Sequence record: PQ133007 | Direction: 5' to 3' (one strand) | DNA length: 44,212 nt | From: Escherichia phage Henu5_1 | Shown: piece by piece, positions 5,043-44,152 of the stretch | How the letters are laid out: the number at the start of each line of letters is the position of its first letter | Numbering within the stretch: the first letter of the stretch is position 1 | The notes under the pieces: model-generated | Seen by the model: the letters and a program-made list of their open reading frames with translations, nothing else | Databases searched by the model: none | What the model was told of the DNA's origin: nothing | Made by a program: the position numbers and the translations under genes

Positions 5043-5333
5043 ATGGATAAGCTAAACGAGTGGCTATTCGCCCTGGCATGTCTGGCGGGTGGCTTCGTAG
5101 GCGCACGCATTCATGGTGAGGCTACGAAGGGGCCGCTAAACTTCGTTTTGTATGTGGTAGTCGGCTTCCTGTGTGCCATATTTGGCGCACCGGCTATTGC
5201 CGAGTGGGCTGGTTTGTCGGGTGAGCGCACTGTCGCCGGTTTGGGCTTCGTAACCGCAATCTTCTGGATGCCAATCGCCGACCGGATCAGGGAGACTATT
5301 GCGTCGTTCCGACTTCCGGGGGGTGCAAAATGA
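5043..5333 (+). CDS. Holin-like membrane protein
   Basis: 96 aa with 2-3 hydrophobic helices, immediately upstream of lysozyme gene. Confidence 0.5.
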   Translation: MDKLNEWLFALACLAGGFVGARIHGEATKGPLNFVLYVVVGFLCAIFGAPAIAEWAGLSGERTVAGLGFVTAIFWMPIADRIRETIASFRLPGGAK

Positions 5334-16820: not shown

Positions 16821-17414
16821 GTGGCTGAAGTCTACTCATTCGCCGCCACTATTGCTACGTGGGTGGATAAGACGAAGGAGAACAACGACAAGGCGGTGCG
16901 GGCGTACGGTATGCAAATACTCGGACGCCTGATCGAGATCTCCCCGGTGGGCGACCCTCGCCGGTGGAAAATTAACAGGGCTTACGCGCTTGCCCGCCAG
17001 CACGCGAACAAGGTGAACGCCGCACAGCGTCGCAAGAATGGTGGCAAACTGAAGCGTGGACAGAAGAAGCACGCCAGTGTGCTGGTATCATTCAAAACTA
17101 AAAACGGCAACGTCACGTTCCGCCAGCGTGGCTGGGCTGCGAAGAATTACACCGGCGGACGCTTCCGGGGAAACTGGCAGGTTACGTTCGACCGCCCGGC
17201 TGTTGGCGCTATTGACCGCGTGGACAAGGCCGGAACGGCAACATTAGCCGCGGGGCGTGAAGTGCTGGCGCATTACGATTCGAGTGAATACGGGTCGATC
17301 TGGTTTACTAACAACGTGCCATACGCGCAGCGCCTGGAGTATGGCTGGAGTAAACAAGCGCCCGCGGGGATTGTTCGCGTCGTAGCGGCAGAAATTAATT
17401 CGAAGGTGAAATAA
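16821..17414 (+). CDS. Hypothetical structural protein (head-tail joining)
   Basis: 197 aa, GTG start with AAGGGG RBS, tightly packed in structural operon. Confidence 0.5.
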   Translation: MAEVYSFAATIATWVDKTKENNDKAVRAYGMQILGRLIEISPVGDPRRWKINRAYALARQHANKVNAAQRRKNGGKLKRGQKKHASVLVSFKTKNGNVTFRQRGWAAKNYTGGRFRGNWQVTFDRPAVGAIDRVDKAGTATLAAGREVLAHYDSSEYGSIWFTNNVPYAQRLEYGWSKQAPAGIVRVVAAEINSKVK

Positions 17415-17836
17415 TGAGCAATACCGTAATCCGCAAAGCGCTTAACAGCGTGGTTGAAGAGTTATCGGCAAGCCTGAGCACAAGCCAGCGTCCGATTAGG
17501 GTTAACTGGGAGAACGTGAGTGGCGACCACGCAAACGGCAGCGGGGTCTACCTGGAACCGTACCTGCTACCGGCCCCGACCCAGTTTGTGGGCTTACAGC
17601 AGAAAGGCCGGATCTATGCTGGCGTATATCAGGTTGCCGTGGTGTTCCCTGCGGGCACTGGCACACAGTACGCGAGCGAACTGGCGGACGCCATCGCTAC
17701 GTCGGATAAGTGGCTGGCGGTAAAGATTTCCGGAGCGACCTTCCAGCTTCAGGACGCGCCATACACCAGTTCCGTGATTGAGGACGTCGATCGTGCTCGC
17801 ATCGTTGTTACAGTCCCCTACACCTGTTGCGCCTGA
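17414..17836 (+). CDS. Hypothetical structural protein (tail completion/neck)
   Basis: 140 aa, start overlaps upstream stop (ATGA). Confidence 0.5.
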   Translation: MSNTVIRKALNSVVEELSASLSTSQRPIRVNWENVSGDHANGSGVYLEPYLLPAPTQFVGLQQKGRIYAGVYQVAVVFPAGTGTQYASELADAIATSDKWLAVKISGATFQLQDAPYTSSVIEDVDRARIVVTVPYTCCA

Positions 17837-17897
17837 TTTGGCGCAATTCTGCGCGTGCTGTATCATTAAACCGTATATCTAAACAGGAGCGTTCATT

Positions 17898-18623
17898 ATG
17901 GGTTATCAACTTCCTAACGGGTCCAGCGTCCAGATTGGGTCCGTACTGGGCAGCGGCATCGCTGTTACGGCAGCTACCAACGCTGCCGCGCCGATCTCTG
18001 ACCTTACGCAAGGTTGCGTAATTACCTGCGCGGCTTCGCATGGCCTGGTTGTAGGCGACGTTGTTATGTTCACTAAAACCCCGTGGGTCCGTGCGCTGAA
18101 CCGCGCGTTCATCGTGGGTAAAGTAGCCGAGAACGCTGTTACGCTGGCGCGTTTCGACACCTCGGACGTCACCAAATACCCGACCGGTGCTTTCGGCGTA
18201 GGCACACCAGGCGAAGTGGTGAAGGTGTCGAACTTTATCGATTTCCCGTTTATCACTAACGTCGCCGTGTCTGGGGGCGACCAGCAGACCACCACTTTCC
18301 AGCCGTTGCAGGTGAATACCGCGATCAGTCTGAATACCACGAAAAACCCGTTGGTCCAGACCTACACTTTCACCCACGACGAAGAAGACCCGATCCGCCC
18401 GATTCTGGAAGACCTGGACGACACACAGAAAACCACTGTGATTAAGTTCACTAACCCGGCAGCGGCAAGCGGCAAAGGTGAGATCCGCATTTACCCGGCT
18501 AAGGTGTCTTTCCAGAAGATTCCATCTGCTGAAGTAAACAACGTGGAGACGGTGGAGTCCACCCTCACTATGCAGTCCGATATGGTTATCTACCGTAAGG
18601 ACTTGGTCGAGGCGCTGTCGTAA
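17898..18623 (+). CDS. Major tail protein (putative)
   Basis: 241 aa, AGGAG RBS, followed by strong terminator and chaperone/tape-measure genes. Confidence 0.6.
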   Translation: MGYQLPNGSSVQIGSVLGSGIAVTAATNAAAPISDLTQGCVITCAASHGLVVGDVVMFTKTPWVRALNRAFIVGKVAENAVTLARFDTSDVTKYPTGAFGVGTPGEVVKVSNFIDFPFITNVAVSGGDQQTTTFQPLQVNTAISLNTTKNPLVQTYTFTHDEEDPIRPILEDLDDTQKTTVIKFTNPAAASGKGEIRIYPAKVSFQKIPSAEVNNVETVESTLTMQSDMVIYRKDLVEALS

Positions 18624-18653
18624 TTTGGTCGCTTAAATAGCGGGTGTTAATAT

Positions 18654-18677
18654 GGGGCCAGTACGGCCCCTTTTTTT
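18654..18677 (+). terminator. Rho-independent terminator after major tail gene
   Basis: GGGGCC-AGTAC-GGCCCC followed by TTTTTTT. Confidence 0.7.
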
Positions 18678-18693
18678 ATTGGAGAATACCACA

Positions 18694-19056
18694 ATGGCTA
18701 AAGCACCACTCTTTACACTTGACCCTAAGCCGACTTTTAAGCTACCGATTGAGATCCCGCGCCCCGGAGAAAACGAACCTGGCAAAATGACGTTTACCGT
18801 GCGCCACCGTCCGATCGACGAGTTTTCGCAGACCATGCAGGATACTGAGCGCAAGTTGTCAGAATATGACGACAATGACCCGGACGGCTTTAATGTTATG
18901 GTCGAGGCCATCATGCACGTCGCTGAAGGCTGGAATTTGCCGGACGAATTTAATGCAGCCAACGTCCGCCGCCTGGTAGTCAACTACCCGCGCGCGTTCG
19001 GCGTGTTCCATACGTCGTACTACCTCGAATTGATGGGGTTGCGTGAAAAAAACTAA
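18694..19056 (+). CDS. Tail assembly chaperone (G-like)
   Basis: ATG 18694 with GGAGA RBS; position just upstream of tape measure; ends at slippery A7 run. Confidence 0.6.
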   Translation: MAKAPLFTLDPKPTFKLPIEIPRPGENEPGKMTFTVRHRPIDEFSQTMQDTERKLSEYDDNDPDGFNVMVEAIMHVAEGWNLPDEFNAANVRRLVVNYPRAFGVFHTSYYLELMGLREKN

Positions 19057-19370
19057 TTGAGGCGGCGCGGCGCTTTTACGGCCCGCCGCCACCCTCCGAA
19101 GATTTAGCCGCTAGTTTATGGGGCGCGACACCTGAAGACGTGTGTCCCCCCGTTGCGCTGTGGCCCGACAACGCGAAGGTAGTCGCAGTCTTCACAGATT
19201 GCTCCACGCAATGGCGTACCGGATTCGGTGGCGCATACGGCATCGACTACGGCGTACTGGAATGGCTATTTAAGATGCACGGCATCGAAAACGCGCAGCG
19301 TGCGTTTAAAGATATCAAGCTAATGGAACGCGTTGCGCTGGATGAAATGGCGCGGAAGAACCCCGCATAA
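18694..19370 (+). CDS. Tail assembly chaperone -1 frameshift fusion product (GT-like, predicted)
   Basis: Slippery heptamer A AAA AAC at 19047-19053 just before stop; -1 frame open from 19047 into track ORF 19140-19370. Confidence 0.5.
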
Positions 19371-19374
19371 CGAA

Positions 19375-19690
19375 GCGGGACAGGCGGGATGTCCCGTTTT
19401 GTCCCGCCACCATTAAACCGCATATATACTCACTTTCATTGCATAAACTAAAAGCGGGACGAGGGTGCTGTCCCGATCTGTCCCGCACCTTAAAAGTGAA
19501 TAGCTATGTGGTTTTTCTGCATAAAACAAACGGGACAGAAAGCGGGACAGAATGAGGCGGGACAAAGCGGGACAGCACCCCTGTCCCCGTCAGTGCTGCC
19601 GCGGGTTTTAGCCGATCGGGACAGGCGGGACAAAGCCCAGTCTTTCAGACTAGACGGGGGTCGATAGCCCCCCTCGTCTGAGACTGAATA
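19375..19690. repeat. GGGACA/TGTCCC repeat module (copy 2), about 12 copies plus conserved hairpin 19638-19686
   Basis: Direct and inverted GCGGGACA copies; 19495-19690 aligns with 2665-2870. Confidence 0.7.
19376..19400 (+). terminator. Rho-independent terminator built from GGGACA inverted repeat
   Basis: CGGGACA-GGCGGGA-TGTCCCG followed by TTTT directly after stop at 19370. Confidence 0.5.
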
Positions 19691-19754
19691 AGGTTTGTTT
19701 TAAATTCGCTGATACAATGACCGACGGCAACTGCATAAAAAGGGGGACTGCATA

Positions 19755-22397
19755 ATGGCAGATCAGGCAGCGGGCATCACGCTCAAGGCGGACGTCGCGC
19801 AAATCAAAACGGCTAATACTGTGCTGGACACATTTGCGCAGAAATCCGAGAACACAGAACAGAAAGTAAAAAAATTAAACGACACCCTCGGCAAGTCGAA
19901 AAAGGTCACTGGTGACGCCGCGGGCGGAATGGAAAAGTTAGCGACTGAATCGCAGCGCGCCGCCGACGGCATGACGAAACAGGAGCGACTCGCCAGCCGA
20001 TTAGGCATGTCGACCAAAAACCTGGGATTCGCATCGCGTAACGCCGCATTCCAGTTACAGGATATCGCTGTTACGCTTGAGATGGGTATGCCGGTGCACC
20101 GCGTTATGCTTCAGCAGCTACCGCAGCTTACTGGGGCGTTTGGCGGACTGGGAAACACGCTGCGTTATGTCGTTGGCACACTCGGCCCGTTAGGGATCGG
20201 CATCGCTGCCGTAACGGCAACGCTCGGCGTAGGGGTGGCAATTACGACACGCGCAGAGAACCAGGTGGCGGCGCTTAATAAGACACTGGCGTTGTCCGGT
20301 AATATTTCAGGCCTCACCGCTAACCAGATCCTGGTGCTATCAGAGAACGCCGAGCGGATGGGCGGATCATTTCGCAAGACGCGTGACACAATCCAGGCGC
20401 TGGCGGCGGCGGGTGTGAAAGCGGGTGGTGACTTCGGCGCATTGGCTAAGGTAGTGAATGACTTTGCGAAGGTGTCCAGCCAGCCGATCGAAGATGTGGT
20501 CGCGGCGGTGGCGAAGCTGTCAACCGACCCGGTAGGCGGCTTGCGCGCACTGGCGGATAAGTATCACGTTGTAAACGAAGCGCAGATCCAGCAGGTGCAG
20601 TCGTTGGTGGATATGGGGCGCGAGACAGATGCGGTTGCGTTGGCTAACAAAACCGCCGCCGCGTCGTTCACCACTATGACCAACGATATCAAGGCGAACA
20701 TGGGTACGCTTGAGCGATCTATGAACGTCGTCACATCGGCAGCTAAATCCGTGTGGGACGCCATCCTGGATGTGGGTCGCGCGCAGTCCTCCAATGAGTC
20801 AGAGATGAAAGCGCGTGAATCCTTGCAGCGCATGACCACTGCTTACTATGCCGAGATGAAAGCGGTAAACGCTGCCGGTGGGGTTATGACCGAAGCGCAG
20901 AAAGCACGTATTAACATGCTTTACAGCGAACTGGTCGCCCAGGAGAAAGTAGTGGCGTCGCTCACCCTGCGCAACCGCGCCGAGCGTGACAACGCCCGCG
21001 CCGCAGACGAATCCGCAAAGGCGAACGAGGAGGCCAACCGCACCGCCCGCGACCGCTCTGCGTTCGAGAAGGAGTACGCAACCAACGCGAAGAAGCGCGC
21101 AGACGAGATCGCCCGCCTCAATTTGCTGAATAAGCGCGGCGTTATTGACGAGAAAGAGCTTGCTGAGGCGGTTAAGCAGGTAAACGCGCGTTACAAAGAC
21201 CCGGCCCCGAAGAAGGCCGCGGCTGTTCGCGTGGATGCCGGTATGAAAATGCTGGAAGTCGCACGGAGCGAACTGGCCCAGCTTCGAGAATCCGGCAAGC
21301 AGATCGAAGCCAACGCGTCTACGCAGACCCGCACGCAACGCGCTCAAGCGGCCTTAAACAAGCTGATCGCCGACAATGAGCAGTTAATCGCTGCGAGCAA
21401 AGAAAGAGCGCTAACGGCAGCCGAAAAGCAGCAGATGGTCGAATTCGGACGCGTGAAGGAAGTGCGCGAGCAGATCGTCGAAGAAGCCAAATTGCTGGAC
21501 GCGAAAGAGAAGCAGGTTAAGGCGCACGCGCAGATCGATGCCTTCGTCAAGAACCAGAACGCTGAACTAAAAGCCACCGCCGCGGGCTATGCGCTTTCCA
21601 CTCGCGAAGCGGCAAACCTGCGCGAAGAATTGCAGCTAATTGACCGCCTGAAGCGGGTTGGCGCTAACGATACCGATATTGACAAGGCGGTGTCTAAGCT
21701 GCGCGAAGTGCAGGAAGCACAGACCGGCGCTAACGCCTCGCTATGGGATGGCTTCAGCCGCGGGCTTAAGGATAGCGTGGATGATATTGGTAATGGATAT
21801 ACGCAGATGGCGTCGCTCACAAAATTCACGTTCAGCGCTATGCAAGACACGATGAACGAGTTTTTCGAGACGGGCAAGCTGAACGCAAAGGATATGGTTA
21901 AGTCCATCCTTAGCGAATTAATCAAGCTGGCTACCTCGCAGGCGTTCAAGTCGATCGTTAGCGCTTTTGGTGGCGACGGCGGCAAAAACGGATTGTTCGG
22001 CGCTATCTTCTCGGGCCTCACCAAGAATGCGGACGGCGGAGCGTACGCAGGAGGCAATCTAGCGGCCTATTCTGGGAAAGTGGTAAGCCAGCCTACCTTT
22101 TTTAGTTATGGCGTCCAGGCGTTCGCTAAGGGCGCAGGATTGATGGGTGAGGCTGGACCCGAGGCCATCATGCCACTGAAGCGCGGGCCGGACGGGAAAC
22201 TTGGCGTTGCCGCGTCGGGTGCGGGCGGTGGTATGGTCGTGACGACTAACGTTTACACTGGGGCCGGCAAAACAGACACCAGTGTGAGCGGCCCAGACCC
22301 CCGTACAGCGCAGGCGTTCGGCAAGCAAATCACCGAGGCGGTCAAGGCCGAGATCGTGAAGGCAACGAAACCGGGTGGTGTACTTTACAAACGATGA
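19755..22397 (+). CDS. Tail tape measure protein
   Basis: 880 aa, alpha-helical Ala/Gln/Lys-rich with coiled-coil character, C-terminal Gly-rich segment; AGGGGGA RBS. Confidence 0.85.
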   Translation: MADQAAGITLKADVAQIKTANTVLDTFAQKSENTEQKVKKLNDTLGKSKKVTGDAAGGMEKLATESQRAADGMTKQERLASRLGMSTKNLGFASRNAAFQLQDIAVTLEMGMPVHRVMLQQLPQLTGAFGGLGNTLRYVVGTLGPLGIGIAAVTATLGVGVAITTRAENQVAALNKTLALSGNISGLTANQILVLSENAERMGGSFRKTRDTIQALAAAGVKAGGDFGALAKVVNDFAKVSSQPIEDVVAAVAKLSTDPVGGLRALADKYHVVNEAQIQQVQSLVDMGRETDAVALANKTAAASFTTMTNDIKANMGTLERSMNVVTSAAKSVWDAILDVGRAQSSNESEMKARESLQRMTTAYYAEMKAVNAAGGVMTEAQKARINMLYSELVAQEKVVASLTLRNRAERDNARAADESAKANEEANRTARDRSAFEKEYATNAKKRADEIARLNLLNKRGVIDEKELAEAVKQVNARYKDPAPKKAAAVRVDAGMKMLEVARSELAQLRESGKQIEANASTQTRTQRAQAALNKLIADNEQLIAASKERALTAAEKQQMVEFGRVKEVREQIVEEAKLLDAKEKQVKAHAQIDAFVKNQNAELKATAAGYALSTREAANLREELQLIDRLKRVGANDTDIDKAVSKLREVQEAQTGANASLWDGFSRGLKDSVDDIGNGYTQMASLTKFTFSAMQDTMNEFFETGKLNAKDMVKSILSELIKLATSQAFKSIVSAFGGDGGKNGLFGAIFSGLTKNADGGAYAGGNLAAYSGKVVSQPTFFSYGVQAFAKGAGLMGEAGPEAIMPLKRGPDGKLGVAASGAGGGMVVTTNVYTGAGKTDTSVSGPDPRTAQAFGKQITEAVKAEIVKATKPGGVLYKR

Positions 22398-34590: not shown

Positions 34591-34914
34591 TTACGCATAA
34601 AAATTTGGGTCGCGCGCTACGTCTACCAGATACAGGTTACTAATGCGGTTGCCGTAGTGGCCTGGTGTGCGCTGACGGCACACTACGGCATAGCCTGGAG
34701 GGATTGTATTGCCAGTCTCAATAATCCACGCCACGCGTGCGCCAGACAGCGTCTTGCCGTTGCATTCGATACGAGTACCGCCATCGGCAGTATTGAGGTT
34801 GCCAATCTTGCAGCCGGTTGACTTCAGGCGGATAACGCCGGTCTTGCTGTCGTAGGAAAAAAGCTGATTGGTCATTGCCACTGAAAAGTCGATGGCGTCG
34901 AATGTAGTATTCAT
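34591..34914 (-). CDS. HNH homing-endonuclease-like protein (NUMOD4/HNH_3-like, possibly degenerate)
   Basis: N-terminal FSYDSKTG..IRLK motif and GNRISNLYLV resembling the DNR..NL element; catalytic His not obvious. Confidence 0.4.
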   Translation of the reverse strand: MNTTFDAIDFSVAMTNQLFSYDSKTGVIRLKSTGCKIGNLNTADGGTRIECNGKTLSGARVAWIIETGNTIPPGYAVVCRQRTPGHYGNRISNLYLVDVARDPNFYA

Positions 34915-35606
34915 TTTAAATTTTCCTCGTTAACCGCTATCGCGAAGCCGCGCGGGGTGAGTGAGCGGATTAATTTTGTACGAGCGGATTTACCACCGAG
35001 GCGACTATACTGTTTCGAGTACCCTTTTTCAACGAAAACAGGTTTCTTCTCTGGCATACGGAAGCCGTTGCCGGTCCATAAGCAGGTCAGCTTCGGATAT
35101 GAATCGCGGGCGTTGATGTATTCCGGGAAGAGCGGGTGTACGTCATCCTCCGGCAGATATCCGCCATACTCCCACGGGTCAAACGAGTGGTCCGGCTTAC
35201 GCCATTGAGTTGATAGCACGCTGCGCGGATTCTCAATCATATACGGCACTTCAAAGAAATCACCCAGGTAAGCGGCGATCTTCGCGGTGCGCACTGCCTT
35301 AAGCTGGAAGGCAGGGTCGCGGGCGCGCTTGCGCGGGAAAGCTGGCGCACCGCTCACCGCCAGATCCGTACACGGCGGGAATGCGTAAATGATATCCGGC
35401 GTGCCGAAATCGCCATTCATCGCACGGTCCACGAAGTCCAGATCGATAAACTCATTACGATAGCGGATCCCGCGACCATAAATCCTGTAGTCCAGGTACG
35501 ACCCGTGATCGGCTTCGGAGTAGTTGAAGCAATAACACTTATGCCCCATCTCGGCAGCACGCTCAATCATCAAGCCGCTGCCGTCAAATAATGACCAGAT
35601 AATCAT
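34911..35606 (-). CDS. DNA cytosine-C5 methyltransferase-like protein (short)
   Basis: FDGSG (motif I-like), AFPPCTDLAVSG (motif IV PC-like), ENP (motif VI ENV-like); 231 aa, shorter than typical Dcm. Confidence 0.55.
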   Translation of the reverse strand: MIIWSLFDGSGLMIERAAEMGHKCYCFNYSEADHGSYLDYRIYGRGIRYRNEFIDLDFVDRAMNGDFGTPDIIYAFPPCTDLAVSGAPAFPRKRARDPAFQLKAVRTAKIAAYLGDFFEVPYMIENPRSVLSTQWRKPDHSFDPWEYGGYLPEDDVHPLFPEYINARDSYPKLTCLWTGNGFRMPEKKPVFVEKGYSKQYSRLGGKSARTKLIRSLTPRGFAIAVNEENLK

Positions 35607-44036: not shown

Positions 44037-44046
44037 CAACTAATTT

Positions 44047-44081
44047 AAAAAAAAAAGCGCCGAAGCAAAATGCGACGGCGC
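44047..44081 (-). terminator. Rho-independent terminator on minus strand
   Basis: A10 run on plus strand (U10 on minus) adjacent to imperfect 10-bp GC stem. Confidence 0.5.
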
Positions 44082-44152
44082 TAACCAATAAGAGACAATG
44101 AGACGGGAGTTATTATTACACGCGTGCGCGCCCGTTTCAATATCCAAAGGAT

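Follow-up and report, generated by a model that had tools for sequence, protein, structure and literature searches.

In phage lambda, a programmed -1 shift of the ribosome yields the G-T fusion alongside tail protein G (Levin, Hendrix and Casjens, 1993; Xu, Hendrix and Duda, 2004, 2013, 2014; as cited in PMC5009743). The two products are made at a G:GT ratio of 30:1 that is needed for tail assembly, and both proteins are required for assembly, with G binding the tape measure protein and T the major tail protein, and both are absent from the virion (PMC5009743). A haloarchaeal virus expresses its g-t product through the heptamer A_AAA_AAC (PMC5009743). In E. coli this heptamer counts as one of the poorer ones (PMC5009743, PMC4066793), but it is a low-efficiency yet proven bacterial shift site in IS1 (PMC4066793). 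Among the T1-like phages, the paper on phage Stevie states a 'conserved translational frameshift' (PMC4319613), and the Stevie and Sushi records annotate the homologous gene pair as a joined CDS. A literature search for a frameshift in Dhillonvirus or HK578 found nothing relevant, and none of the Dhillonvirus records inspected carried a joined or fused CDS annotation.

Here we analyzed a 44,212-nt stretch of DNA (the window) from phage Henu5_1, a Dhillonvirus, i.e., an HK578/SSL-2009a-like siphophage of E. coli. Pfam matches gave the gene order Phage_tail_3, Phage_TAC_4 (G), DUF1799 (the -1 ORF, T) and TMP_2, followed further downstream by lambda-like tail genes (Phage_min_tail and others). 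The genes and the intergenic element of the locus are as follows:

17898-18623, plus strand, major tail (tube) protein gene, the 5′ neighbor (Pfam Phage_tail_3, E = 3.6e-33; major tail protein in the annotation of relatives)
18654-18680, plus strand, terminator-like hairpin followed by a T-run, in the gap that separates G from the major tail gene (consensus scan: six G-C pairs, then TTTTTTT)
18694-19056, plus strand, gene G, encoding the 120-aa tail assembly chaperone that standard decoding yields (translation; Pfam PF08748 Phage_TAC_4)
19053-19370, plus strand, T segment in the -1 frame, 105 codons and TAA, DUF1799 (Pfam, PHROG, codon-position variation)
19755-22397, plus strand, tape measure protein gene, the 3′ neighbor (Pfam TMP_2, 6.8e-43; Tape_meas_lam_C, 7.1e-14)

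Based on the sequence and its conservation, the heptamer A_AAA_AAC at 19047-19053 is very probably a programmed -1 ribosomal frameshift site in the Dhillonvirus tail assembly chaperone gene. A sequence-only reading of the window had matched the locus to the conserved G/GT frameshift of tailed phages, a match supported by the gene order, the register of the heptamer, the startless -1 ORF and the conservation in relatives. That reading had also placed the element just upstream of the tape measure gene; the major tail and tape measure genes do flank it, but it does not directly adjoin the latter, which begins at 19755, 384 nt past the T stop.

G starts at ATG 18694, with GGAG 9 nt upstream; an alternative start at ATG 18652 was rejected since it lies inside the terminator-like hairpin, and a terminator is annotated at the equivalent place in phages Stevie and Sushi. 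Residues 1-120 of G matched positions 1-124 of the 124-position Phage_TAC_4 profile with 82.6 bits (cut-off 21.1), and in the alignment of close relatives the variable sites of G fell 12/7/79 on the three codon positions. A profile comparison of G with lambda gpG by hhalign gave a probability of 0.3%, i.e., no detectable sequence similarity, and an AF2 model of G from a 3-sequence alignment, of too low a quality to judge the fold by (pLDDT 62.7), had no Foldseek match with E < 1 in the PDB. We infer the function of G from the Pfam naming, the gene order and the analogy with lambda, and by the same analogy the G/T element would work like lambda G/GT; the hhalign result does not support membership of the lambda sequence family.

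The 3′ end of G (19039-19056) reads TTG CGT GAA AAA AAC TAA in the G frame, with a run of seven A at 19046-19052, and contains the following features:

19044-19046, plus strand, TGA stop of the -1 frame, the upstream limit of the productive shift window (sequence)
19047-19053, plus strand, slippery heptamer A_AAA_AAC in X_XXY_YYZ register, with AAA (Lys) as P-site codon and AAC (Asn) as A-site codon
19054-19056, plus strand, TAA stop of G, adjoining the 3′ end of the heptamer, a possible 'shifty stop' contributor (sequence)

The heptamer makes up the last two sense codons of G, AAC being the final one. Because the overlap between G and the -1 frame, as bracketed by the stops at 19044-19046 and 19054-19056, is exactly the seven heptamer bases, the heptamer is the sole place where a productive -1 shift could occur. 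The sequence-only reading had reported A AAA AAC at 19045-19053, two codons before the stop; the heptamer is indeed present at the end of G, but its true span excludes 19045-19046 (GA), and it covers the last two sense codons with the stop directly adjacent rather than two codons away. The same reading had the -1 frame opening at 19047, as it does, and this frame runs through the 19140-19370 ORF to TAA 19368-19370; the fusion of about 225 aa that it predicted comes to 119 + 1 + 105 = 225. By themselves, the heptamer and the A-run are no more than chance would give: there are 27 in-frame X_XXY_YYZ heptamers in the 53 ORFs of the window, and seven A7 runs were observed against 9.1 expected. Their combination with the context exceeds chance, because here they coincide with a startless 105-codon -1 ORF, bracketing stops in the two frames, a location with the major tail gene on one side and the tape measure gene on the other, and conservation in relatives. 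Elsewhere in the window, a heptamer with a long -1 extension at 34914-34923 (minus strand) was rejected as an ordinary ATGA-type gene overlap (34911-34914) with its own ATG, and two further heptamers that likewise open into long -1 extensions (5240 and 5318) fall within a 96-aa ORF chosen by crude gene picking.

The A-run was found to be seven A long in every one of the 24 close relatives examined and in all three contigs carrying a G about 60% identical, and in the close relatives it is invariant while the adjoining wobble sites vary. Thus the length polymorphism among isolates that the earlier reading had named as a point against a frameshift was not seen in any relative read. A search for homologous proteins with the fusion returned three proteins only, two of which led to contigs with a G of about 60% identity. 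A tblastn search matched the fusion in 1153 phage records, mostly as two pieces, G and T lying in different frames. A single-piece tblastn match in SSL-2009a (H38) was considered as a length change and rejected as a BLAST extension artefact, the A7 run and the open -1 frame being intact there. Among 65 distant relatives (30-41% identity, mostly T1-like), A_AAA_AAC with the stop was present in 48 and G_GGA_AAC with the stop in four, and each of these 52 has a -1 extension of 101-110 codons. The stop adjoins the heptamer in 52 of the 53 distant relatives that have a canonical one, as TAA or TGA among the 52; in phage Baybae the adjacent stop is TAG, and Webervirus relatives have GCA AAA GTT TAA at the equivalent place.

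The sequence-only reading had pointed to 19054-19110 as the place for a downstream stimulatory structure, and in this region a hairpin is predicted:

19061-19090, plus strand, predicted stimulatory hairpin (RNA fold -21.9 kcal/mol, conservation, compensatory changes)

Its outer stem pairs 19061-19067 with 19084-19090 through seven G-C pairs (GGCGGCG/CGCCGCC), its inner stem pairs 19069-19071 with 19081-19083 (3 bp), the loop is 19072-19080, and the spacer from the heptamer to the hairpin is 7 nt. The fold has a z-score of only -1.25, with 24 of 200 shuffles folding as well, in this G+C-rich stretch. In close relatives the outer stem is invariant, including five synonymous sites; third positions vary at 2 of 16 sites in 19042-19090 and at 134 of 193 elsewhere (Fisher p = 1e-5, which is approximate because the sites share a phylogeny). 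One relative (L035) carries a compensatory change from G-C to A-U, two others (L118 and L119) form different inner helices, and compensatory changes are also seen between the Dhillonvirus and T1-like stems. Family-wide, pairing at the hairpin is found in 62.6% of cells versus 24-48% in slid controls, with modest covariation, and roughly one in three distant relatives has no such hairpin. As the arms encode conserved Ala and Pro, the protein may account for some of the nucleotide conservation. A complement of loop 19072-19080 that could form a pseudoknot was sought by eye in 19091-19140 and none was found, and an Rfam scan of the region gave only sub-threshold miRNA-like chance matches. The GGGG at 19036-19039 was rejected as an upstream SD-like stimulator since this position varies (GGG/GGA/GGC) among relatives.

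From this anatomy we infer the following course of events. Most ribosomes that translate G would stop at TAA 19054, leaving the 120-aa chaperone as their product. In a minority, the P-site tRNA-Lys (codon AAA, 19048-19050) and the A-site tRNA-Asn (codon AAC, 19051-19053) would together slip one base back and re-pair with AAA AAA at 19047-19052. The next codon would then be CTA 19053-19055 and the -1 frame would be read to 19370, giving a 225-aa G-T fusion with the junction ...R-E-K-N-L-I-E... and the expected junction peptide ...GLREKNLIEAAR... The G+C-rich hairpin at 19061-19090 may well assist this shift, a delay in decoding the stop next to the heptamer may contribute as well, and the efficiency is likely to be a few percent.

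We weighed this tandem slippage against three other explanations. The most improbable of them is that no recoding occurs and that the downstream ORF is an independent gene starting at GTG 19140, as in many GenBank records, or at ATT 19056, as in the record of Sodalis phage SO-1. The ORF listing gives GTG 19140, two relatives (L001 and L002) annotate a CDS equivalent to 19140-19370, and SO-1 gp16 begins at the final base of the G stop. However, in 12 of 17 other distinct aligned sequences GTG 19140 is replaced (by GTT in 11 and ATT in one) with the frame open throughout, and no Shine-Dalgarno sequence precedes it. The 87 nt upstream of it (19053-19139) vary 6/0/14 by -1-frame codon position, as compared with 18/9/55 in 19140-19367, and the T protein alignment is conserved from residue 1 in relatives down to about 30% identity. 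T residues 23-99 matched the whole DUF1799 profile (PF08809, positions 1-80 of 80; 76 bits, cut-off 26), and both the DUF1799 and PHROG 680 matches start upstream of 19140, while the conceptual G-T fusion matched phrog_17368 in one stretch (residues 1-223 on profile 1-212 of 213). NCBIfam holds no family for the G-T fusion, and a PDB sequence search gave no match. ATT is no credible start, an independent gene would leave the conservation of the heptamer unexplained, and the contrasting junction at 34911-34914 shows an ordinary overlap, in which the downstream gene has its own ATG. Because GTG 19140 is unconserved and lacks a Shine-Dalgarno sequence, and because the preceding 87 nt evolve as -1-frame coding sequence, the sequence comparisons support a T segment that has no start of its own and would be read only after a shift.

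The two remaining explanations lead to the same change of frame by other means. Transcriptional slippage, in which RNA polymerase would insert one A in the A7 run and ordinary translation would give the junction ...E-K-K-L-I-E..., suits a homopolymeric run, as one added A produces the identical reading-frame change. Examples are known from some bacterial IS elements and from type III secretion genes (PMC5009743). We nevertheless consider it very unlikely, given that the G_GGA_AAC (A3) and GCA_AAA_GTT (A4) of relatives keep the frame and the logic of tRNA re-pairing but cannot support polymerase slippage, and that a conserved downstream structure at a 7-nt spacer is typical of ribosomal stimulators. 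In addition, efficient slippage by bacterial RNA polymerase usually needs about nine or more A/T, of which seven A fall short. A 'shifty stop', an established concept (Weiss et al., 1987, as cited in PMC5009743), is a mechanistic variant with an identical product and not a separate feature: with AAC in the P site and TAA in the A site, termination would be slow, peptidyl-tRNA-Asn would slip from AAC to AAA, and CTA would be decoded. The stop adjoins the heptamer in those 52 of 53 relatives more strictly than ending G requires, whereas in lambda it comes five codons past the heptamer. Moreover, Leu in the -1 frame is always encoded by CTA or CTG with A or G as the next base; CTT and CTC never occur there, and the zero-frame stop is thus itself under selection. 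Against this variant, tRNA-Asn on AAA would form a wobble mismatch; the full X_XXA_AAC (XXX = AAA or GGG) is conserved, as tandem but not P-site-only slippage needs; and in the Webervirus GCA AAA GTT TAA the GTT before the stop is unable to re-pair at -1. We therefore regard it as unlikely, and retain tandem slippage on the heptamer as the preferred mechanism. Heptamers of the X_XXA_AAC type are efficient in eukaryotes and poor in E. coli, and we tentatively put forward, without regarding it as the likelier case, that the Phage_TAC_4/DUF1799 chaperones of Dhillonvirus, Drexlerviridae and others share a composite cassette of X_XXA_AAC, an obligatory adjacent stop and a hairpin 6-7 nt on, where a 'shifty stop' termination pause would offset the weak AAC A-site codon and set the G:GT ratio. 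If so, this ratio would respond to release-factor activity in the infected cell.

By analogy with lambda, G and the G moiety of GT would form a coat on the tape measure protein, to which the DUF1799 domain of T would bring the major tail protein, and neither G nor GT would end up in the virion. Virion mass spectrometry, which had been suggested for detecting the fusion, is thus unsuited, and infected-cell lysate is the right material, because lambda G and GT are absent from the virion (PMC5009743). The predicted frameshift is of an ordinary, well-known kind and largely unannotated in Dhillonvirus, and the main value of the finding is for annotation: between 126 and 158 Dhillonvirus records in the phage collection match the region, G is usually labeled there as 'hypothetical protein' or, wrongly, as 'tail length tape measure protein', and T is missing or has an arbitrary start. 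The correct gene model for the 225-aa fusion CDS is join(18694..19053,19053..19370). A large family of enterobacterial phages thus appears to rely consistently on A_AAA_AAC with a stop and not on heptamers ending in AAG, the best-performing kind in E. coli. It offers a convenient natural system for studying how the frameshift rate would be set to a low, fixed value by a weak heptamer in combination with a neighboring stop and a hairpin.

Compared with known systems, the locus resembles lambda in several respects: the major tail and tape measure genes flank two ORFs, of which the downstream one is startless and in the -1 frame, an X_XXY_YYZ heptamer stands at the very end of G, and a minor fusion product is expected. 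It differs from lambda in its heptamer (A_AAA_AAC versus G_GGA_AAG), in the stop being directly adjacent instead of five codons later, in a T of the DUF1799 instead of the Phage_tail_T family, in a G with no detectable similarity to gpG, and in the predicted downstream hairpin; lambda is reported to need no stimulator. With E. coli dnaX (A_AAA_AAG) it shares an A-rich heptamer, tRNA-Lys in the P site and a stem-loop a few nt downstream. dnaX has a highly efficient AAG A-site codon, an upstream SD-like stimulator and a shift of about 50% that yields a shorter product, whereas here the A-site codon is AAC, there is no conserved SD-like element and the product is longer. As in IS1 insA-insB', a low-efficiency A_AAA_AAC would give a minor fusion protein in E. 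coli, but the proteins and the biology (transposase regulation in IS1) are unrelated and no stimulator has been established for IS1 (PMC4066793). The true homologues are the T1-like pairs of Drexlerviridae (TLS TfmS/TfmB, Citrobacter phage Stevie gp15/gp16 and Klebsiella phage Sushi gp14/gp15), which share the Pfam and PHROG families at 30-41% identity, A_AAA_AAC with the stop at an equal alignment position, a -1 extension of about 105 codons and, in many of these phages, a hairpin at the equivalent codons. Relative to them, Henu5_1 G carries a 15-aa insertion and the stem is stronger and all G-C (GGCGGCG/CGCCGCC versus GGCGGTT/AACCGCC). Unlike the classic tight arrangement, a repeat-filled gap of 384 nt separates the T stop from the tape measure start in Henu5_1, as against about 40 nt in the T1-like phages.

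A megablast search with the region 17800-20000 returned 158 phage records at 80-96% identity, nearly all of them Dhillonvirus phages that infect Escherichia or Shigella, including HK578, SSL-2009a, JL1, EP23 and Sodalis phage SO-1. With the tail assembly chaperone ORF denoted G, the downstream -1-frame segment T and their conceptual fusion GT, the region is arranged as follows:

17414-17836, tail terminator gene (Phage_tail_terminator_5)
17898-18623, major tail protein gene (Phage_tail_3)
18654-18680, terminator-like hairpin between the major tail gene and G (GGGGCC...GGCCCC, then T7)
18694-19056, G, a 120-aa ORF (Phage_TAC_4, 82.6 bits)
to 19370, T, the -1-frame ORF (DUF1799, 76 bits)
19371-19754, non-coding gap of 384 nt separating the T stop from the tape measure gene
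19755-22397, tape measure gene (TMP_2 and Tape_meas_lam_C)
3' of the tape measure gene, lambda-like distal tail genes

The sequence-only reading had placed a frameshift in the chaperone gene just upstream of the tape measure gene; the gene order is indeed canonical, with the qualification that the 384-nt gap intervenes. G starts at ATG 18694, which has GGAG 9 nt upstream, and the ATG at 18652 in the ORF list was rejected, as it lies inside the terminator-like hairpin. Terminators are annotated at the equivalent place in phages Stevie (Citrobacter) and Sushi (Klebsiella), and this strong hairpin may make the chaperone and tape measure genes less transcribed than that of the abundant tube protein. 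Elsewhere, at 44040-44085, an A10 run (44047-44056) adjoins a GCGCCG...CGGCGC hairpin. This intergenic element lies upstream of an ORF on the minus strand and, read on that strand, where the hairpin is followed by T10, resembles an intrinsic terminator. In the gap at 19371-19754 the motif GCGGGACAR occurs at least 10 times, in both orientations (19375-19633), together with longer direct and inverted repeats; 7 further copies are clustered at 2712-2814, following a 754-aa ORF. The motif has 31 matches with at most one mismatch, against 12.4 +/- 4.1 expected, a number reached by 0 of 100 shuffles, and these repeats may be regulator binding sites; the SO-1 record labels the equivalent gap 'region A ... 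sequence similarity with region B'.

In the chaperone ORF frame, 19039-19056 reads TTG CGT GAA AAA AAC TAA, with an A7 run at 19046-19052. The slippery heptamer A_AAA_AAC had been assigned to 19045-19053; it is present, in the correct X_XXY_YYZ register, and its true span is 19047-19053, the GA being two extra bases. AAC is the last sense codon of G and the stop directly adjoins the heptamer. The -1 frame has a TGA at 19044-19046 and is thereafter open until TAA 19368-19370, so that it runs, as claimed, from 19047 into the ORF at 19140-19370, and the conceptual product (119 + 1 + 105 = 225 aa) has the length predicted for the fusion. The seven heptamer bases make up the entire overlap of the zero-frame and -1-frame ORFs, so that no -1 shift elsewhere would be productive. 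The heptamer alone is not beyond chance, with 27 in-frame X_XXY_YYZ heptamers in a crude gene set of the window (53 ORFs, 41 kb), 4 of which have a -1 extension of at least 100 codons, and A7 runs are not enriched in the window (7 observed, 9.1 expected). What sets 19047 apart from the window's other heptamers is the startless T, conservation and the downstream structure.

Several other heptamers were noted. On the minus strand, A_AAT_TTA and T_TTA_AAA (34911-34923) close a 231-aa ORF and have a -1 extension of 107 codons, and a frameshift was rejected there because 34911-34914 is an ordinary 4-nt ATGA-type overlap and the next gene (34591-34914) has its own ATG. A second A7 run (19868-19874) forms an in-frame A_AAA_AAA near the tape measure gene start, with a -1 extension of 13 codons; it is probably incidental, being present in some relatives (L003, L004, L011 and L014) and missing from others. 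T_TTG_GGC at 5240 (-1 extension of 109 codons) and G_GGG_GGT at 5318 (83 codons) are in-frame in a 96-aa ORF, which was chosen by a crude longest-ORF picker and is possibly not a true gene.

The only candidate start of T, GTG 19140, has no Shine-Dalgarno sequence upstream on inspection, and among the 17 other distinct aligned Dhillonvirus sequences it is GTT in 11 and ATT in 1; the T frame stays open in all 17. The 87 nt from the slip site to 19140 evolve like coding sequence in the -1 frame, with 6/0/14 variable sites at the three codon positions; G has 12/7/79 and the remainder of T 18/9/55. Both domain matches begin upstream of T residue 30 (= 19140), DUF1799 from residue 23 and PHROG 680 from residue 11, and alignment with relatives of about 30% identity shows T conserved from the first post-shift residue (L1, A4, Y9, G24, D29). 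GenBank gene models in the genus place the T start at the GTG, at an ATG further on or at an ATT overlapping the stop (SO-1), or leave T out, and none of them accounts for these data. On this comparative evidence, T is a frame without a start of its own.

Conservation of the signal extends beyond the genus. All 24 Dhillonvirus sequences have an A-run of 7 and an unchanged GTGAAAAAAACTAATT, with variation at the wobble positions flanking it (GGG/GGA/GGC and TTG/ATG/CTA); a run polymorphic in length, which had been named as grounds for dismissing the frameshift, is thus not what is seen. Three metagenomic contigs with G about 60% identical keep GAA AAA AAC followed by TAA or TGA, plus the -1 ORF. 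By tblastn, the conceptual fusion matches 1153 phage records (833 at 80% query coverage or more), mostly Drexlerviridae (T1-like) of Escherichia and Klebsiella, with Ralstonia, Vibrio and other phages, and almost every one of the matches listed is split in two, in keeping with G and T lying in separate frames. A_AAA_AAC abuts the G stop at 8 of 12 inspected loci, where the -1 ORF has about 105 codons; the motif in Vibrio phage Baybae is G_GGA_AAC followed by TAG, and the other 3 have non-canonical AAA- or AAG-containing ends. Among 65 distinct IMG/VR relatives at 30-41% identity, for 6 of which a simple script made no call, 48 have A_AAA_AAC and 4 have G_GGA_AAC before the stop, 6 have GCA AAA GTT TAA, and 1 has the heptamer one codon earlier. 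A joined CDS is annotated for the homologous pair in phages Stevie and Sushi, the paper on Stevie describes a translational frameshift that is conserved (PMC4319613), and the 213-position profile PHROG 17368 covers fusion residues 1-223 in one stretch, so the fused architecture is already among annotated phage proteins. In Enterobacter phage N5822 (L022; MW032452.1, a 78-kb T1-like record, 601-1230) the tblastn match is a single piece and the G homologue is interrupted (89 codons), which suggests indels or assembly errors in the record rather than a natural in-frame fusion.

A search for a downstream stimulatory structure had been proposed, and a candidate hairpin was found at 19061-19090. Its outer stem, GGCGGCG (19061-19067) with CGCCGCC (19084-19090), begins 7 nt after the heptamer, and an inner GGC/GCC helix (19069-71 with 19081-83) closes a 9-nt loop. 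The folding free energy of 19040-19100, -21.9 kcal/mol, is not unusual for a stretch so rich in G+C (z -1.25; equalled by 24 of 200 shuffles), and support for the hairpin comes from comparison between sequences. Only 2 of 16 third-codon positions vary over 19042-19090, against 134 of 193 elsewhere in G and T (Fisher p = 1e-5, a rough value because sites share a phylogeny), and the outer stem shows no variation at any of its 5 synonymous sites. Compensatory changes are seen in the inner helix, which is GGC/GCC in the window and GAC/GTC, CCG/CGG and GCCG/UGGC in three relatives (L035, L118 and L119, respectively), and T1-like phages have a hairpin on the same codons in an ungapped alignment, GGCGGTT/AACCGCC, which differs from the window's stem by two compensatory pairs. 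Across 39 diverse sequences 62.6% of cells are paired, against 24-48% with the 3' arm slid by 1-3 columns; covariation is modest (0.136 versus 0.106 in shuffles, reached by 11 of 500), and the helix is missing from roughly a third of lineages. The hairpin is probably a stimulator and not essential. No conserved Shine-Dalgarno-like element was seen upstream, and no obvious pseudoknot partner.

Classical tandem -1 slippage is the best-supported mechanism by these comparisons: tRNA-Lys would re-pair from AAA to AAA and tRNA-Asn from AAC to AAA, after which CTA (Leu) would be decoded to give the junction ...REK-N-LIEAAR.... In E. coli A_AAA_AAC is far less shift-prone than A_AAA_AAG, yet it shifts above background without stimulators and is the proven IS1 shift site (PMC5009743; PMC4066793); it also serves g-t expression in a haloarchaeal virus (PMC5009743). 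A weak heptamer fits the biology, since lambda requires a G:GT ratio of about 30:1 (PMC5009743). Transcriptional slippage on the A7 run is unlikely as the main route, as the run is short and the G_GGA_AAC or A4 motif of relatives permits tRNA re-pairing and not polymerase slippage. The stop directly adjoins the heptamer in 52 of 53 canonical relatives (TAA or TGA, with TAG in phage Baybae) and neither CTT nor CTC ever serves as the Leu codon of the -1 frame, which suggests that the adjacent stop is part of the signal (a 'shifty stop'). The stop could instead act through single P-site slippage of tRNA-Asn, whose product is identical to that of tandem slippage, so that only mutagenesis would separate the two. 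A tentative and rather doubtful further reading unites the heptamer, the adjacent stop and the hairpin in a composite cassette, where a termination pause would set the G:GT ratio.

Strong comparative evidence thus supports a conserved G/GT reading, as originally proposed, and with it the interpretation of 19047-19053 as a predicted programmed -1 frameshift site. G/GT-type frameshifts are a textbook feature (Levin 1993; Xu 2004). None of 12 opened Dhillonvirus records has a joined CDS at this junction, none of 60 records among the matches listed has two chaperone-named features there, and no paper linking Dhillonvirus with frameshifting was found; the site is previously unannotated in the Dhillonvirus records inspected, though the feature type is already known. 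In Dhillonvirus records G mostly goes under 'hypothetical protein' or 'tail length tape measure protein'; the latter is a misnomer that many RefSeq records carry and that also stands in PHROG descriptions. The host labels of 'Campylobacter phage A144/A136/A121' and 'Acinetobacter phage NJ01', which either share about 90-94% identity with E. coli Dhillonvirus phages or have T1-like chaperone genes, look doubtful (contamination or mislabelling).

From the Pfam name, canonical gene order and lambda analogy, we infer that the G/T pair are tail assembly chaperones. Lambda G and GT both attach to the tape measure through their G sequence, and GT also attaches to the major tail protein through its T domain; neither G nor GT is in the virion (PMC5009743). 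Homology of G to lambda gpG was not demonstrated (hhalign probability 0.3%), and a fold search gave no Foldseek hit from a low-quality AF2 model (pLDDT 62.7); the window's pair would work like lambda G/GT without shown membership in the gpG/gpT sequence families. The lambda G stop lies five codons after G_GGA_AAG, whereas in the window it is directly adjacent to A_AAA_AAC. The T1-like pair, in contrast, is a true homologue for which the frameshift is already annotated, and it differs in that its T stop is only about 40 nt from the tape measure gene, compared with 384 nt in the window.
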